Positions 4,647-11,311 of a stretch of DNA of 32,000 bases are shown here, one piece after another (the first letter of the stretch is position 1; every line of letters starts with the position of its first letter). The notes beneath the pieces were generated by a model. It made no database searches. It had not been told where the DNA came from and worked only from the letters and a program-made list of their open reading frames with translations. This DNA comes from Micrococcus luteus NCTC 2665 (GTDB lineage Bacteria > Actinomycetota > Actinomycetes > Actinomycetales > Micrococcaceae), in the NCBI RefSeq assembly GCF_000023205.1, contig NC_012803.1, forward strand, positions 1,800,001-1,832,000, given 5' to 3'. A program made the position numbers and the translations under genes.

Positions 4647-6602
4647 TCACCGAGCGGACGGGCCCGCTCCGGCGGGCCCGTCCGCGCCGTCCCCGTCGTC
4701 CAGATACTCGCCCAGCACGTAGTCGTACTCCACCGGGTTCCCGTCCTCGTCCGTACGGCGGTACCAGTCGGTGATCTCCGCGGCGGTGGAGTCGAACCCC
4801 TCGCCGGCCGCGTACCAGCTGCCCGGCGGGGTGCGCTCCACCGTGAACGCGAAGTCGTCCCCGTACTCCACCAGGCCCCGCACCGTCGCCTTCTCGACGG
4901 CGGCCCGCTGGTACCGGTCACGGATCGCGAAGGGGTCGTTGGCCAGTTCGCGCTGGAGCGCGACCGCCATGAGGACGAGCACCACGGTGAACGGCAGCGC
5001 CGTGATGGTGATGAGGTTCTGCAGGCCGGTGAGCGCGGTGTCGCCGCCGGTCAGCAGCATCACGACGGCGATGCCCGCCATGCACAGCGCCCAGAACACC
5101 GTGATCGTGCGGCGCGGGGCCGGGGCGCCGCGCTGCGAGAGCTGCGAGTTCACGATCGAGGCGGAGTCCGCCGTCGTGATGAAGAAGACCGCCAGCATGA
5201 CGATCACGACCGGGGCCACCAGCCCGCCGCCGGGCAGCTGGTCCAGGACCACCCAGAAGATCTCCGCCGGCGCGGGCAGCGACGCGGCCGTGCCGTCCGG
5301 CGCCACGGAGCCCTGCGTCCGCTGCAGCCAGATGGTGGTGCCGCCGATGATCGTGAACGCGCCGACGATCACCGCGGCCGGGATGAACAGGGCGCCGAGG
5401 ACGTACTGGCGGATGGTCCGGCCCTTCGAGATCTTCGCCATGAACACGCCCACGAACGGGGCCCAGCTGACCCACCACGCCCAGTAGAAGATCGTCCAGC
5501 TGGAGAGGAACTCCTGCATGTCCTCCCCCTCGGCCATCGAGGCGCCGAGGGCGTCCGGGGCGGAGGAGACGTAGTCCATCAGGACGCCGGGCACGATGTT
5601 CAGCAGGAACGCCGTCGGGCCGACGACGAAGAAGAACAGCGCGAGGCCGAGGGCGAGCAGCATGTTGATGTTGGACAGCCACCGGATGCCGCGGGCCACA
5701 CCGGACACCGCCGAGAAGATGGTGCCGATCGTGAGCACCACGATGATCCCCAGCGCCACCGTGTTCCCCGGCGCCGACCAGCCCGAGACGATCTCCACGC
5801 CTCGGCCGATCTGGAGGGCGCCGATGCCCAGCGAGGCCGCCGTGCCGAACAGTGTGGCGATGATCGCGAGCCCGTCGATCAGGCGCGCCCCGACGGAGTC
5901 GCTGCGCTGGGAGTCGCCGAACAGCGGCGCGATGATCGAGCTCATCAGCGGCACCCGGCCCCGGCGGTAGGACACGTAGCCGACCGACAGGCCGACGATC
6001 GCGTAGATCGCCCACGCGTTCACGCCCCAGTGCAGCGCGGCCTGGGCCAGCGCGCCCGTCACCGCCTCCTCGCTCGCCGCCTCGTACGCCCCCGGGCGCG
6101 GGGCCAGGTAGTAGGTCAGCGGCTCGTACGGGCCGAAGAAGATGATGCCGATGCCGATGCCGGCCGCGAAGAGCATGGCTGACCAGCTCGCCGTGGAGTA
6201 CTCCGGCTTCTCCCCGTCCAGGCCCAGCGGGATCTCGCCGTACCGGGAGAACGCCAGGGCCAGCAGGAACACCACCATCCCGATGGCCAGCAGGGCGAAC
6301 AGCCAGCCGGCGTGGACCATCACCCAGTCGAGGGCCGCGCTCGAGACGGCCAGCACGGCGTCCGGCTGCAGCACGCCCCACACCACGAAGCCGACCACCA
6401 GCAGGCCGACGACGGCGAGGATCACCCGGTCCACGCCGTAGCGCACCCGGCGGTCCTCCACGGACACGCCCGGCACGAGGGCCGGGTGGATGCCGTGCGG
6501 ATAGGAGAACTCGCGGACGAAGCGGCGCAGCCGTGGCCGGGGTCCGGGTCGTGTGGGACCCGGTGGGACGGGGCGGCGTGGGTGTGTCCATGGGCACACC
6601 AT
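4647..6602 (-). CDS. BCCT-family (betaine/carnitine/choline) transporter
   Basis: It carries the BCCT signature WTIFYWAWWVSWAPFVGVFMAKISKGRTIRQYV and about 12 TM segments. The track ORF extends to 6656, but that extension overlaps a 17-bp terminator hairpin. I chose ATG 6602..6600 (MVCPWTH...), which still precedes the conserved HPALVPG segment. The start is uncertain because there is no clear SD. Confidence 0.85.
   Translation of the reverse strand: MVCPWTHPRRPVPPGPTRPGPRPRLRRFVREFSYPHGIHPALVPGVSVEDRRVRYGVDRVILAVVGLLVVGFVVWGVLQPDAVLAVSSAALDWVMVHAGWLFALLAIGMVVFLLALAFSRYGEIPLGLDGEKPEYSTASWSAMLFAAGIGIGIIFFGPYEPLTYYLAPRPGAYEAASEEAVTGALAQAALHWGVNAWAIYAIVGLSVGYVSYRRGRVPLMSSIIAPLFGDSQRSDSVGARLIDGLAIIATLFGTAASLGIGALQIGRGVEIVSGWSAPGNTVALGIIVVLTIGTIFSAVSGVARGIRWLSNINMLLALGLALFFFVVGPTAFLLNIVPGVLMDYVSSAPDALGASMAEGEDMQEFLSSWTIFYWAWWVSWAPFVGVFMAKISKGRTIRQYVLGALFIPAAVIVGAFTIIGGTTIWLQRTQGSVAPDGTAASLPAPAEIFWVVLDQLPGGGLVAPVVIVMLAVFFITTADSASIVNSQLSQRGAPAPRRTITVFWALCMAGIAVVMLLTGGDTALTGLQNLITITALPFTVVLVLMAVALQRELANDPFAIRDRYQRAAVEKATVRGLVEYGDDFAFTVERTPPGSWYAAGEGFDSTAAEITDWYRRTDEDGNPVEYDYVLGEYLDDGDGADGPAGAGPSAR
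4654..4685 (+). terminator. perfect 14-bp stem / 4-nt loop hairpin, 9 nt after the DAACS stop
   Basis: GCGGACGGGCCCGC-tccg-GCGGGCCCGTCCGC. It has no U-tract, which is common in actinobacteria. It lies inside the last codons of the convergent BCCT gene. Confidence 0.45.
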
Positions 6603-6637: not shown

Positions 6638-6683
6638 GACGACGACGGCCCCTCACCCGGGCGGGCGAGGGGCCGTCGTCGTC
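6638..6683 (-). terminator. perfect 17-bp stem / 12-nt loop hairpin downstream of groEL
   Basis: GACGACGACGGCCCCTC-acccgggcgggc-GAGGGGCCGTCGTCGTC. It lies 30 nt past the groEL stop on the minus strand. Confidence 0.55.
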
Positions 6684-8428: not shown

Positions 8429-8725
8429 TCACTTGGTGACGACGGCCAGCACGTCGCGGGCGGAGAGCACCAGGTACTCCTCGCCGCCGACTTTGACCTC
8501 GGTGCCGCCGTACTTGGAGTACAGCACCACGTCACCCTCGGCGACGTCGACCGGCACGCGGTTGCCGTTCTCGGCGACCCGGCCCGGGCCCACGGCCACG
8601 ACCTGGCCCTCCTGCGGCTTCTCCTTGGCGGTGTCCGGGATCACGAGGCCCGACGCGGTGGTCTGCTCGGCCTCCAGGGGGCGGACAACGATGCGATCCT
8701 CGAGGGGCTTGATGGAGACAGACAT
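8429..8725 (-). CDS. groES: co-chaperonin GroES
   Basis: The internal ATG at 8725 gives 98 aa, [49 protein letters not shown]... [10 protein letters not shown] lies upstream. The upstream part of track ORF 8429..9025 is non-coding. Confidence 0.97.
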
Positions 8726-8854
8726 GCTGCACACTCCTTCTTCGTCGACGTGCGGCTCCGGCGGGCTCGCCGGTCCGCTGATGCTGTGGTCTGCGGGTGC
8801 GCCACGGGCGTCAGACCCTCCGTCGTCGCGGTGCCGGACGGTCCACCTCGGGCA

Positions 8855-8881
8855 TTGGCACCCGGTACCCCCGAGTGCCAG
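8855..8881 (-). promoter_or_regulatory. CIRCE (HrcA operator) copy 1, one mismatch
   Basis: The minus strand reads CTGGCACTC-N9-GGGTGCCAA. The CIRCE consensus is TTAGCACTC-N9-GAGTGCTAA. It lies downstream of the predicted -10. Confidence 0.7.
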
Positions 8882-8886
8882 CCCTG

Positions 8887-8916
8887 ACTCTACTCCGGGT
8901 TCTGGCACTCCTTCAA
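8887..8916 (-). promoter_or_regulatory. predicted groES promoter TTGAAG-N18-TAGAGT
   Basis: The -35 sits inside the spacer of CIRCE copy 2, and the -10 sits between the two CIRCE copies. This is the classical HrcA-repressed layout. Confidence 0.5.
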
Positions 8917-8928
8917 CATGAGTGCCAG
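8902..8928 (-). promoter_or_regulatory. CIRCE (HrcA operator) copy 2, perfect inverted repeat
   Basis: CTGGCACTC-cttcaacat-GAGTGCCAG, a perfect 9-N9-9 palindrome. Confidence 0.8.
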
Positions 8929-9058
8929 CCGTGTCCCCGCCGTCCGCCGTGGGCGGAGGCGTGGGGCGCGGTGTGGTGGGATGCCGTGGGGCGGCGGGCG
9001 GGGCGGGTTCCGGGCCCGGGAGCACACGGTGTGGTCACGACTGCGGCCGGGATCCTGT

Positions 9059-9085
9059 CCCTCCCCCACTCCCCCCACTCCCCCC
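9059..9085 (-). repeat. G-quadruplex-type motif (four G tracts, loops of 1-3 nt) on the minus strand; C-rich i-motif on the plus strand
   Basis: The plus strand has CCC-t-CCCCC-act-CCCCCC-act-CCCCCC. It ends 9 nt outside the left inverted arm. Confidence 0.4.
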
Positions 9086-9094
9086 TCGCCACCC

Positions 9095-9190
9095 TCCGTG
9101 GGCAGAAACCGCACCCCCGCCCATCGCGTGGGCAGCATCCGCAGGTTTTGGATCTCCGTGGGCAGAAGCGCCCTCTCTTCTGCCCACGGA
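9095..9190 (+). repeat. left 96-nt inverted arm: three phased copies of TCCGTGGGCAGAA, the innermost forming a 14-bp/8-nt-loop palindrome
   Basis: GTGGGCAG cores start at 9098, 9128 and 9158, exactly 30 nt apart. The palindrome is TCCGTGGGCAGAAG-cgccctct-CTTCTGCCCACGGA at 9155..9190. The arm aligns without gaps to the reverse complement of 10381..10476. Confidence 0.85.
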
Positions 9191-9196
9191 TGTTGC

Positions 9197-9226
9197 GTGG
9201 GCGGAACTCCTCGCAGTTCTGCCCAC
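9197..9226. repeat. extra motif hairpin (12-bp stem with one G-T pair, 6-nt loop), present on the left side only
   Basis: GTGGGCGGAACT-cctcgc-AGTTCTGCCCAC, which is the same core motif as the arms. Confidence 0.75.
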
Positions 9227-9361
9227 CGAGCCATGACGACGTCGTCCCGGCGGGACAACCGGCCGCCGCCGAGTCCTGCACAGCCGGCCCACCCCGCGCC
9301 GGTGTGCACAGACACACGGCCCGCCCGGCCGCCGTCGGACCGACCGCGTCAGGGTCGACCC

Positions 9362-10339
9362 ATGCCCTTCGCCCCCGACCTCCCCCTCGTCCCCGTCTTC
9401 ACCACCCGCGACGTGCTCGAACGCGGTCTGCCGCCCAGCCGGGTGCGGCGGTCCGACGTCCTCCGCCTCGCCCGCGGCATCCACCGTCGCCGTGACATGC
9501 CGCTGCGCACCTGGGAGTCGGCCGGGCTCCCGCCGCCGCACCACGGGGTCGGCCTCGACCTGCTGACCGCCCTCCTGCGGTCCCGTTCCGACGCCGTTCT
9601 CTCCCATGAGACGGCGGCGCACCTCCACGGACTCCCGCTTCCCCCGGGCGGGGCCACGCGACGCGCCGCCGTCGAGATCACGTTGCACCGCGGCACCGCA
9701 CGGGCGCGGATCCCCGGCGTCATGGAGCACCGCAGACCCCTGCCCGCCGGCCACGTCACCTCCGTGCTCGGGCTACGGGTGACGACGCCGGAACGGACCT
9801 GGCTCGATCTGTGCTCGATCGGCCACCCCTGGGACGAGGCATCCCTCGTGTCGGCGGGTGACCACCTGGTCCGTCACCCCTGGTCCCCGAGCGGCCGGCG
9901 GCCTCCCGTCACCACGGTCACCGCGCTGCACGAGGCGATGCGGCCGCTCGGGCGGTTCGTCGGAAGACCGCAGGCGACGGCGGCGCTCGAGCGCGTACGG
10001 GTGGGTGCCGACTCACCGCAGGAGACCCGGCTGAGGCTGGCGCTCGTCGAGGCGGGGCTGGGCGAGCCGACGCTGCAGCACGTGCTCGACCCCGGGCGGC
10101 GGGACGCCCCCGAGGCCGATCTGTGGTTCGAGGACTGCCGGCTCGTCCTCCAGTACGACGGCGAGTTGCACCGGAGTGCCGAGCAACACGCCCGGGACGC
10201 CCGGCGAGACCAGTACTACGCGGAGCGTGGGCAGATGACCCTGCACGTCACAGGCCGGGACGTCGGCGAGGGATACGCGCGGGTGATCGAGGCCGTCCTC
10301 AGACGACGGGCACAGGTCTCGAACGGCTGGGATGCCTGA
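9362..10339 (+). CDS. DUF559 (Vsr-like PD-(D/E)xK fold) protein with an AbiEi-like wHTH N-terminal region
   Basis: Internal ATG 9362 of track ORF 8918..10339 gives 325 aa. The N-terminal region reads FTTRDVLERGLPPSRVRRSDVLRLARGIH...SHETAAHLHGLP...TTPERTWLDL. The C-terminal region reads ADSPQETRLRLALVEAGLGEPTLQHV...ADLWFEDCRLVLQYDGELH...D..RDQYYAERG. This layout is typical of the abundant actinobacterial DUF559 family. Confidence 0.72.
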   Translation: MPFAPDLPLVPVFTTRDVLERGLPPSRVRRSDVLRLARGIHRRRDMPLRTWESAGLPPPHHGVGLDLLTALLRSRSDAVLSHETAAHLHGLPLPPGGATRRAAVEITLHRGTARARIPGVMEHRRPLPAGHVTSVLGLRVTTPERTWLDLCSIGHPWDEASLVSAGDHLVRHPWSPSGRRPPVTTVTALHEAMRPLGRFVGRPQATAALERVRVGADSPQETRLRLALVEAGLGEPTLQHVLDPGRRDAPEADLWFEDCRLVLQYDGELHRSAEQHARDARRDQYYAERGQMTLHVTGRDVGEGYARVIEAVLRRRAQVSNGWDA

Positions 10340-10380
10340 CGTCGCCGTCGCGTATGGCCCTGCCGTCCATGCGCAGGGAT

Positions 10381-10476
10381 TCCGTGGGCAGAAGCGAGGG
10401 TGCTTCTGCCCACGGAACCTGGAAACACGCGGGTCCTGCCCCCGGAAGGCGAGACCCGGCGGGTTCTGCCCACGGA
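10381..10476 (-). repeat. right 96-nt inverted arm (reverse complement of the left arm)
   Basis: CTGCCCAC cores start at 10406, 10436 and 10466, exactly 30 nt apart. The inner palindrome TTCCGTGGGCAGAAGC-gagggt-GCTTCTGCCCACGGAA (10380..10417) has a 16-bp perfect stem. It starts 41 nt after the ORF stop and could also act as a bidirectional terminator. Confidence 0.85.
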
Positions 10477-10555
10477 ACGCTCGCGCCGGCCGGGCACCCG
10501 GCCCCCGCCCGGACCGAGCTGGCCCCCGCCCGGGCCGGCCTCACCGTCGCCCCGC

Positions 10556-11311
10556 TCAGTAGTACACGGCCAGCGGCCCGTGCGGTCCGTCCACCACGCT
10601 GCAGGGGGTCTTGAAGATCCGCTCCAGCACCTCAGGGCGCAGGATCTCGGCCGGGGTGCCGGTCTCCACCACCTGGCCGTCCCCCATGGCCACGATCCGG
10701 TCGGCGTAGTGGGCGGCGAAGTTGATGTCGTGCAGCACGATCACCACGGTCCGGCCCAGCTCGTCGGCGGCCCGACGCAGCTGCTGCATCATCTGCGCCG
10801 AGTGCTGCATGTCCAGGTTGTTCAGCGGCTCGTCCAGCAGCACGTACTCGGTGTTCTGCGCCAGCACCATCGCCACGTACGCGCGCTGCCGCTGGCCGCC
10901 CGAGAGCTGGTCGAGGTAGCGGTTCTCGAACGGGCCGAGGTTGAGGAAGTCGATCGCGTCGGACACGTGCCGCTCATCTTCCAGGGTCAGCCGCCCGCGC
11001 GTGTACGGGTAGCGCCCGAACCCCACGAGCTGTCGCACGGTCAGCCGCGTCACGAAGTGGTTCTCCTGCCGCAGGATGGACAGGGTCTGCGCGATCTTCC
11101 GGGACGGCGTCGTGGTGATGTCGTGCCCGCCCACGGCGATCGTCCCGGCGTCGGCGTCCTGCAGCCGGCCGATCATCGTCAGCAGCGTGGACTTGCCGGC
11201 CCCGTTGGGCCCCACGAGCGCGGTCACTCCCCCGGCCTGGATGTCCAGGTCCACGGGTCCGATGCACACCTCGTCGCTGTGGCGCTTCACCACGCCGCGC
11301 AGCTCGATCAC
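10556..11311 (-). CDS. siderophore/iron-chelate ABC transporter ATP-binding protein (FatE/YclP-like)
   Basis: The GTG start at 11311 overlaps the upstream permease stop (GTGA). The product has Walker A GPNGAGKST, signature LSGGQRQR and Walker B VLLDEP. The track ORF 10556..12202 is extended by out-of-frame upstream sequence. Confidence 0.92.
   Translation of the reverse strand: MIELRGVVKRHSDEVCIGPVDLDIQAGGVTALVGPNGAGKSTLLTMIGRLQDADAGTIAVGGHDITTTPSRKIAQTLSILRQENHFVTRLTVRQLVGFGRYPYTRGRLTLEDERHVSDAIDFLNLGPFENRYLDQLSGGQRQRAYVAMVLAQNTEYVLLDEPLNNLDMQHSAQMMQQLRRAADELGRTVVIVLHDINFAAHYADRIVAMGDGQVVETGTPAEILRPEVLERIFKTPCSVVDGPHGPLAVYY

Follow-up and report, generated by a model that had tools for sequence, protein, structure and literature searches.

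Why does a single nuclease-like gene lie between two mirrored arrays of the same short sequence, and what recognises these arrays? The question is raised by a 32-kb stretch of the Micrococcus luteus NCTC 2665 chromosome (contig NC_012803.1, positions 1,800,001 to 1,832,000; the whole stretch is called the window here, and coordinates count from its first letter). One open reading frame (ORF) at 9362-10339 is enclosed by inverted arms at 9095-9190 and 10381-10476. We favour the reading, to which we give a probability of just under 60%, that the arms serve as local recognition sites for the product of the enclosed ORF, and that arms and gene form a vertically inherited unit laid out like the REPIN-RAYT systems (REPtrons; REP, repetitive extragenic palindrome) with a different class of enzyme.

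The initial annotation, made from the sequence alone, had described the arms as gapless over 96 nt with 72 matching positions. A repeat search returned the same figures (75% complementary, 72/96), and local alignment of the upstream against the downstream flank gave a score of 48, compared with a mean of 13.9 (sd 1.7, maximum 19) for 60 shuffles (z = 19.7). The count of ten motif copies also held. The 13-mer TCCGTGGGCAGAA was found exactly at six places (9095, 9155 and 10381 on the plus strand; 9178, 10404 and 10464 on the minus strand) and with one to three mismatches at four (9125 and 9194, plus; 9217 and 10434, minus), all of them between 9095 and 10476, and no copy with up to two mismatches was detected in the rest of the window. 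The starts at 9095, 9125 and 9155 and those at 10404, 10434 and 10464 follow each other in exact 30-nt steps, as had been claimed. Two half-sites, a palindrome and a degenerate palindrome precede the gene, and a palindrome and two half-sites follow it in mirrored order:

9095-9107, plus strand: outer left half-site, TCCGTGGGCAGAA, exact, present in all luteus-group strains
9125-9137, plus strand: middle left half-site, CGCGTGGGCAGCA, three mismatches, 30 nt from the outer left half-site
9155-9190: left palindrome, TCCGTGGGCAGAAG, 8-nt centre, CTTCTGCCCACGGA, with 14-bp stems
9194-9229: second left palindrome, degenerate, TGCGTGGGCGGAAC ... GTTCTGCCCACCGA (repeat and motif search)
9362-10339, plus strand: ORF of 325 aa, AbiEi-like winged-helix N-terminal part and Vsr/DUF559 (EDxHD-type) nuclease domain (homology, fold)
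10380-10417: right palindrome, TTCCGTGGGCAGAAGC, 6-nt centre, GCTTCTGCCCACGGAA, with 16-bp stems
10434-10446, minus strand: middle right half-site, TCCGGGGGCAGGA, two mismatches (motif search)
10464-10476, minus strand: outer right half-site, TCCGTGGGCAGAA, exact (repeat and motif search)

Folded as single-stranded DNA, the left palindrome (9155-9190) reached -17.2 kcal/mol (z = -7.0) and the right one (10380-10417) -22.4 kcal/mol (z = -8.6). Rfam searches with the hairpins gave only microRNA noise below threshold; neither the window nor two Arthrobacter loci contained anything at gathering score. The window arm had no meaningful match among plasmids and viral contigs.

Relatives of the gene turned out to be flanked in the same manner. 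A metagenome scan with a 12-sequence alignment yielded 73 loci encoding relatives, to which genome loci were added. For 45 non-redundant loci (less than 90% protein identity), the 330 nt upstream of the start codon were aligned to the region from -70 to +200 nt around the stop codon. Similarity between the two flanks exceeded the 99th percentile of 1708 cross-locus controls in 39 of the 45 loci, and in 23 it was above the control maximum. The shared element is a locus-specific palindrome, typically of 45-70 nt, found in the upstream flank and in the stop-codon region. The upstream palindrome usually has stems of 23-25 bp around an 8-12-nt centre and ends about 60-170 nt ahead of the start codon, with its counterpart at the stop; in one clade the TGA stop lies within the palindrome, and in Pseudarthrobacter the palindrome is within the 3' coding end. 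The stems agree inside a locus and differ among loci, even when positional orthologues with neighbouring genes at 80-99% identity are compared. The 202 kb of surrounding sequence contain 54 strong hairpins, and 12 of the 13 matched pairs found there flank a gene of this family. The pairing rule was also found in Citricoccus, Pseudarthrobacter, Arthrobacter sp. ERGS1:01 and Tsukamurella (Mycobacteriales). A 326-aa ORF near the Citricoccus gene, which has no Pfam matches, was rejected as a family member.

We compared the arms with the separate domains of the protein. Across 95 close pairs, and with phylogeny left out of account, arm similarity followed the identity of residues 1-100 (rho 0.69), compared with 0.44 for the middle domain and 0.46 for the nuclease domain; the corresponding coefficients in ordinary least squares were 1.61 versus 0.06 and 0.39. 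The N-terminal AbiEi-like part is also the most variable domain. This family-wide covariation strongly supports the earlier proposal of a cognate DNA site for a DUF559-type protein.

The same locus was examined in ten Micrococcus genomes, which are those returned by an exact-GroES look-up and of which nine belong to the luteus group. The ORF sits between groES and the gene of the ATPase of an ATP-binding cassette (ABC) transporter in all ten, as well as in three further lineages, and no empty site was seen among the Micrococcus genomes examined. The arms are kept in the nine luteus-group genomes and in related contigs (L126-L128). The copy number of the 30-nt unit (13-mer and spacer) differs among strains, with two or three single half-sites on the right arm (window 10404-10476; L126 11489-11591) and one extra left-arm half-site in CP043849 (L138, reverse strand, extra unit). 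The phasing is therefore a product of unit duplication. In the three further lineages the cassette has diverged much further than its neighbours (amino-acid identity to the window):

L222: cassette 54%, GroES 97%, ABC ATPase 91%, FecCD 81%
L225: cassette 50%, GroES 99%, ABC ATPase 86%, FecCD 76%
L135: cassette 50%, GroES 100%, ABC ATPase 94%, FecCD 86%

In L135 and L225, CGGCGnGTCGTGAGC hairpins flank both sides of the cassette. L222 has the mirrored layout of the window with a diverged 12-mer, TTsTGGGCGAAC, at steps of 31, 31 and 30 nt (plus-strand sites at 976 and 1007, palindrome 1007/1020, gene, palindrome 2405/2418, minus-strand sites at 2449 and 2479). The phased arrangement stays while the motif changes with the protein. 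Relatives carrying the ORF here without arms had been named as an argument against a cassette; the relatives do have arms, of other sequence.

The start of the ORF is most likely the ATG at 9362, giving 325 aa ending at 10339, and a start at 8918 was rejected in its favour. A relative (P0001) is likewise 325 aa long and 98% identical to the window protein, and the proteins and contigs most similar to the window come from M. luteus and M. yunnanensis. In Pfam the window protein matched DUF559 (PF04480) with E = 0.011 and 16.0 bits against a cut-off of 20.6, and AbiEi_4 with E = 0.03, both below threshold. The domain calls therefore rest on the AbiEi models of PADLOC, which cover residues 13-153 with E = 8e-14 (no other PADLOC models matched), on the Pfam matches of relatives, and on the fold. 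Domains found among the relatives are AbiEi_1, MTES_1575 and DUF559; at E <= 0.01, DUF559 was matched in 7 of 22 relatives and MTES_1575 in 8 of 22. An AlphaFold model (AF2) built from a 40-sequence alignment reached a mean predicted confidence (pLDDT) of 93.7. With Foldseek its C-terminal domain matched the catalytic domain of I-Bth0305I (3r3p, probability 1.0, template-modelling (TM) score 0.73), as well as the DUF559 structure 3hrl (TM 0.74) and the nuclease domains of PvuRts1I and AbaSI. E221, R225, D253, G267, H270 and D279 are invariant across the 40 sequences. From their order and spacing, E221, D253, H270 and D279 probably form the EDxHD catalytic set of Vsr-like nucleases, a motif described in PMC3239194. 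The winged-helix and DUF559 composition given in the initial annotation thus stands on the AbiEi models, the domains of relatives and the fold, and fails on the protein's own Pfam scores: this is a divergent member of the DUF559 superfamily and not a clean Pfam member.

Searches of NCBIfam gave nothing, and a sequence-profile search of the PDB gave weak matches only. No Y1 (HUH tyrosine) transposase signal and no transposase domain of a recognised kind appeared in the Pfam, PADLOC or fold searches. In a profile search this large, chromosomal family returned 3,522 clusters (50% identity) with E <= 1e-30 and 22,762 with E <= 1e-10. It is absent from ordinary plasmids, and a phage collection returned one dubious match.

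Copies of the cognate palindromes were also found away from the gene. Arthrobacter sp. StoSoilB13 carries two Mb-sized replicons with one detectable family gene apiece. For one of these genes the palindrome matched at least 20 BLAST places in each replicon; each palindrome is counted on both strands, so this corresponds to at least about 10 sites per replicon. The palindrome of the other gene matched 6 and 4 places. When 200 kb of this strain were read directly, three solo copies were seen (76-85% identical, no family gene alongside), with discrete ends (CCCAAsT ... AsTTGGG) and unrelated flanks. Tsukamurella tyrosinosolvens carries the flanking pair and, in seven other records, full-length copies that are 81-88% identical; both inspected solo copies lie between convergent housekeeping genes. 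In Arthrobacter sp. ERGS1:01 the cognate palindrome matched seven BLAST places. Dispersal was thus seen in three strains from two genera, and the inspected copies are extragenic; first tests had shown no extra copies near the genes. Further long palindrome families are present in these genomes as well. A motif scattered with no link to this ORF family had earlier been named as an argument against a cassette, and the scattered copies seen here belong to the palindrome family that brackets a gene of this ORF family.

How might such a unit work? We infer that the protein dimerises, binds DNA and cleaves or nicks it; it may also play a part in copying or homogenising the palindromes and in regulating its own gene. 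A dimer would occupy each palindrome, by analogy with I-Bth0305I. That enzyme is homodimeric, and its contacts span about 60 bp of a pseudopalindromic target, possibly two 30-bp half-sites as its authors suggest (PMC3239194). The winged-helix domains would read the 13-bp half-sites, with the nuclease domains placed over the palindrome centre, and additional subunits would be brought in on either side by the extra half-sites, spaced at 30-bp steps. On the extragenic solo palindromes of relatives the protein would presumably act in trans. By binding to the flanks it probably also keeps its own expression down, in the manner of AbiEi and Rv2827c, which bind inverted repeats in their own promoters (PMC7319586). 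Nuclease action on the palindromes could drive a concerted change of all four arms and an occasional spread of copies. A wider proposal, which we put forward tentatively and consider less likely than not, is that nucleases with an AbiEi winged helix and an EDxHD domain form a second class of REP-associated enzymes, independent of the first. Each would maintain, homogenise or spread one family of long extragenic palindromes specific to it in Actinobacteria, with the flanking pair as master copies and with an N-terminal domain that sets a rapidly co-evolving, readable DNA specificity.

Several observations weigh against recognition of the arms by the enclosed protein. The domain-covariation statistic ignores phylogeny. 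A matched pair is missing in 6 of the 45 loci and in a Nonomuraea relative, and no solo copies of the window-type motif were found in about 60 kb of distinct Micrococcus DNA. Pairs also occur around unrelated genes, so pairing is not exclusive to the family: in Citricoccus (L212, 18679-18745 and 20687-20753) matched long palindromes bracket a gamma-glutamyltranspeptidase-like ORF, and in Arthrobacter (L219, 44098-44160 and 47817-47879) they bracket glycosyl-hydrolase-like and sugar-binding ORFs. The latter palindrome family matched 18 and 10 BLAST places in that Arthrobacter strain, with a partial copy in a metagenome locus (L190, 3657-3681). The E-x-D-G motif is common in DUF559; the window protein and the consensus of its family both have Gln in place of the Glu. 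Finally, a 1-nt deletion (alignment column 694, window ~9568) splits the ORF into products of 288 and 205 aa in L126 (NCBI assembly GCA_053628375.1, whose 288-aa product P0034 is named Micrococcus yunnanensis) and in L127 (a metagenome contig of the European Nucleotide Archive, ENA), and L150 is a deletion-bearing allele of a paralogue at the dapD/gltA locus. Frameshifted and deleted alleles with intact arms imply that strains can do without the gene, at least in the short run. For L143 and L150 (68% protein identity, 99% in the flanks), allelic replacement was considered and rejected, as L150 carries internal deletions.

The lack of solo copies in that Micrococcus DNA would also be expected if the arms were purely local operator or insulator sites, through which the protein or a host factor represses and insulates its own gene in a loop like that of lambda OL/OR, the scattered palindromes of relatives being ordinary REP-like or terminator repeats. 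We consider this unlikely. The upstream palindrome does lie just ahead of the likely promoter and the downstream one at the stop codon, other palindrome families share the same genomes, and in the lambda immunity region cI lies between OL and OR, mirrored operator arrays that covary with protein specificity. Like cI, the window gene would encode a DNA-binding protein bracketed by mirrored similar sites; unlike it, the gene has no phage context, its product has a nuclease domain, and no outward promoters under its control are evident. Autoregulation requires neither a matching site past the stop codon nor an invariant nuclease catalytic set, and the solo copies in Arthrobacter and Tsukamurella are full-length, have discrete ends and are 76-88% identical to the gene-flanking palindrome. 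Proteins of the AbiEi family do autoregulate via inverted repeats (PMC7319586), and the "self-recognising operator array" of the initial annotation remains compatible with the data.

A mobile cassette would be either a transposon with multi-site ends or a homing-type nuclease gene inserting at pre-existing palindromes, with the solo copies as empty targets. The nuclease has the fold of an EDxHD homing endonuclease, the intergenic site among housekeeping genes that holds the family gene differs from genus to genus, and the divergence of the cassette, much faster than that of its neighbours, could reflect replacement. Tn7 and Mu ends carry several phased protein-binding sites in mirrored order, and IS200/IS605 elements have similar hairpins at both ends. 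The arms resemble both in their mirrored phased sites and hairpins, and differ in the lack of a transposase of known class, in the lack of a target-site duplication and in their fixed position across species. Every Micrococcus genome examined has the ORF at this locus. In line with the initial annotation, no target-site duplication could be seen adjoining 9095 or 10476, and no left-flank to right-flank matches between related loci, which would indicate an invertible cassette, were found. Neither a second copy (in the window and the gene surroundings tested) nor near-identical cassettes in differing contexts were found, and the family is missing from ordinary plasmids and, apart from the dubious match in the collection, from phages. 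Moreover, a palindrome that received an insertion would be split into halves, and the palindromes here are both complete. We therefore set aside the transposon-end interpretation that had been offered and regard mobility in either form as distinctly improbable.

That the palindromes are structural hairpins (terminators lacking a T-tract) made alike by local gene conversion and unlinked to the protein seems very improbable. They fold stably and sit at gene ends, and long terminator-like palindromes are common in these genomes. Against this, nearly all matched pairs in the 202 kb (12 of 13) are found around genes of this one family, arm sequence changes along with the N-terminal domain, and neither the window's single half-sites at 30-nt steps nor their L222 counterparts are hairpins. 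Stem mismatches of the G.T and A.C types occurred at ratios of 12:13 upstream and 14:7 downstream; there is no significant strand bias, and sense-strand RNA folding is therefore not indicated. No canonical terminator was called, and promoter and terminator consensus scans of 8700-10700 found nothing.

We give equally little credence to a single-chain toxin-antitoxin or abortive-infection module of the AbiE kind, in which the AbiEi part would bind operators and silence the fused nuclease until phage infection releases it, since AbiEi homology, a nuclease as plausible toxin and rapid divergence are offset by the lack of an AbiEii/DUF1814 partner, by housekeeping neighbours in place of defence islands, by PADLOC matches to AbiEi models alone, and by a downstream site and solo copies that it leaves unexplained.

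Recognition of the arms by the enclosed protein remains our preferred reading, and the REPIN-RAYT system is its closest analogue in logic. Three reports (PMC3116915, PMC5581495, bioRxiv 10.1101/2021.07.10.451892) describe REPIN-RAYT as a single-copy, vertically inherited gene flanked by its own repeats. Here, too, a single-copy gene at a fixed locus has cognate extragenic palindromes on both sides, gene variants are paired with different palindrome families, and the solo copies of relatives lie between convergent genes. Unlike REPIN-RAYT, the protein combines an AbiEi winged helix with a Vsr/EDxHD nuclease and is not an IS200/IS605-type HUH tyrosine transposase; the hosts are Actinomycetota and not Proteobacteria; and dispersal is seen in Arthrobacter and Tsukamurella relatives, with no solo copy in the roughly 60 kb of Micrococcus DNA covered. 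The copy numbers seen are low as well: ERGS1:01 has about 3-4 sites, the two StoSoilB13 families have 5 and at least 20, and Tsukamurella has 10. Classical REPs occur in hundreds of copies. The REPtron-like interpretation given earlier is largely upheld at the level of the family, gaining support from one-locus vertical inheritance and from scattered extragenic cognate palindromes in relatives. The unit is not a member of the REPIN-RAYT family, as its enzyme class differs.

Two further systems share parts with the protein. With AbiEi and Rv2827c, type IV AbiE antitoxins whose binding sites are sets of inverted repeats close to the antitoxin genes (PMC7319586), it has a homologous N-terminal winged-helix part. 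It differs from them in its fused nuclease domain, in putative sites on both sides of the gene and not at the promoter alone, and in the lack of an AbiEii nucleotidyltransferase partner: no AbiEii/DUF1814 gene adjoins the family gene in any locus table, and the neighbours in the window are groES and a siderophore-type ABC transporter. With I-Bth0305I, the prototype of EDxHD homing endonucleases, it shares the catalytic fold (3r3p) with conserved E, D, H and D and the combination of an N-terminal DNA-binding part with a nuclease, and the ~60-bp contact of I-Bth0305I is comparable to palindromes of 45-70 nt. Unlike that enzyme's gene, the gene here is intergenic and chromosomal, with no intron or intein, and is not phage-borne. 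No nuclease-free allele was seen among the genomes fetched, and the putative sites flank the gene intact, not disrupted.

In the literature searched on DUF559 with inverted repeats, AbiEi, palindromes or REPs in Actinobacteria we found no description of this arrangement, and no function or DNA target assigned to the family. The flanking palindromes suggest which DNA this large family recognises. They would supply a predicted cognate site for each member, readable from genome sequence alone, and the biochemistry is therefore directly testable. If the REPIN-RAYT analogy is true, palindrome-plus-enzyme systems arose more than once with unrelated enzymes, some long extragenic palindromes of high-G+C Gram-positive genomes would be explained, and the family would offer a natural series of matched nuclease-target pairs with diverging specificity.

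Between the upstream arm and the start codon we found two further elements:

9274-9285, plus strand: TCCTGCACAGCC, kept between the upstream palindrome and the start in all Micrococcus cassette variants
9302-9313: GTGTGCACAGAC, similar to TCCTGCACAGCC and 28 nt after this first copy

The first is kept in L003, L135, L143, L222 and L225 despite their differing palindromes. In the Arthrobacter-like clade, TGTGGATAA or TGTGGACAA (up to one mismatch) occurs within 130 nt upstream of the ATG in 31 of 45 loci, mostly at -45 to -48; background sequence of 177 kb gave five matches. Downstream of the motif, a -10-like hexamer lies 6-7 nt ahead of the ATG, a distance that suggests a leaderless transcript. 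A perfect DnaA-box-like CCTGTGGATAAC (variant TGTGGACAA) is found, for example, about 47 nt before the ATG in L182, at a fixed distance from the hexamer. The upstream motif of this clade is a DnaA box on the other strand, and it could mean control by DnaA or be an operator that the family conserves.

On the other side of the left arm lies the chaperonin region:

8432-8725, minus strand: groES

Two CIRCE-type inverted repeats precede groES, at 8855-8881 and 8902-8928 (TTGGCACCC-N9-GAGTGCCAG and CTGGCACTC-N9-GAGTGCCAG); chaperonin operons usually have such repeats as their HrcA operator. From the groES promoter to the left arm, the spacer (8935-9094) is of low complexity and diverged between species; it consists of a G-rich run (GGCGGAGGCGTGGGG...) followed by C-rich direct repeats (CCCTCCCCCACTCCCCCCACTCCCCCC, 9050-9096). 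A BCCT-family transporter gene by groEL is split into two ORFs in L126 (6259-7653) and L138 (7125-8941) and is intact in L129 (7135-9090, 651 aa). After groEL, a palindrome at 6638-6683 (GACGACGACGGCCCCTCACCC...) closely resembles terminator-like Arthrobacter palindromes at 5532-5578 and 5758-5797 of L216 and at 48717-48766 of L219, and may represent a hairpin type shared between genera.

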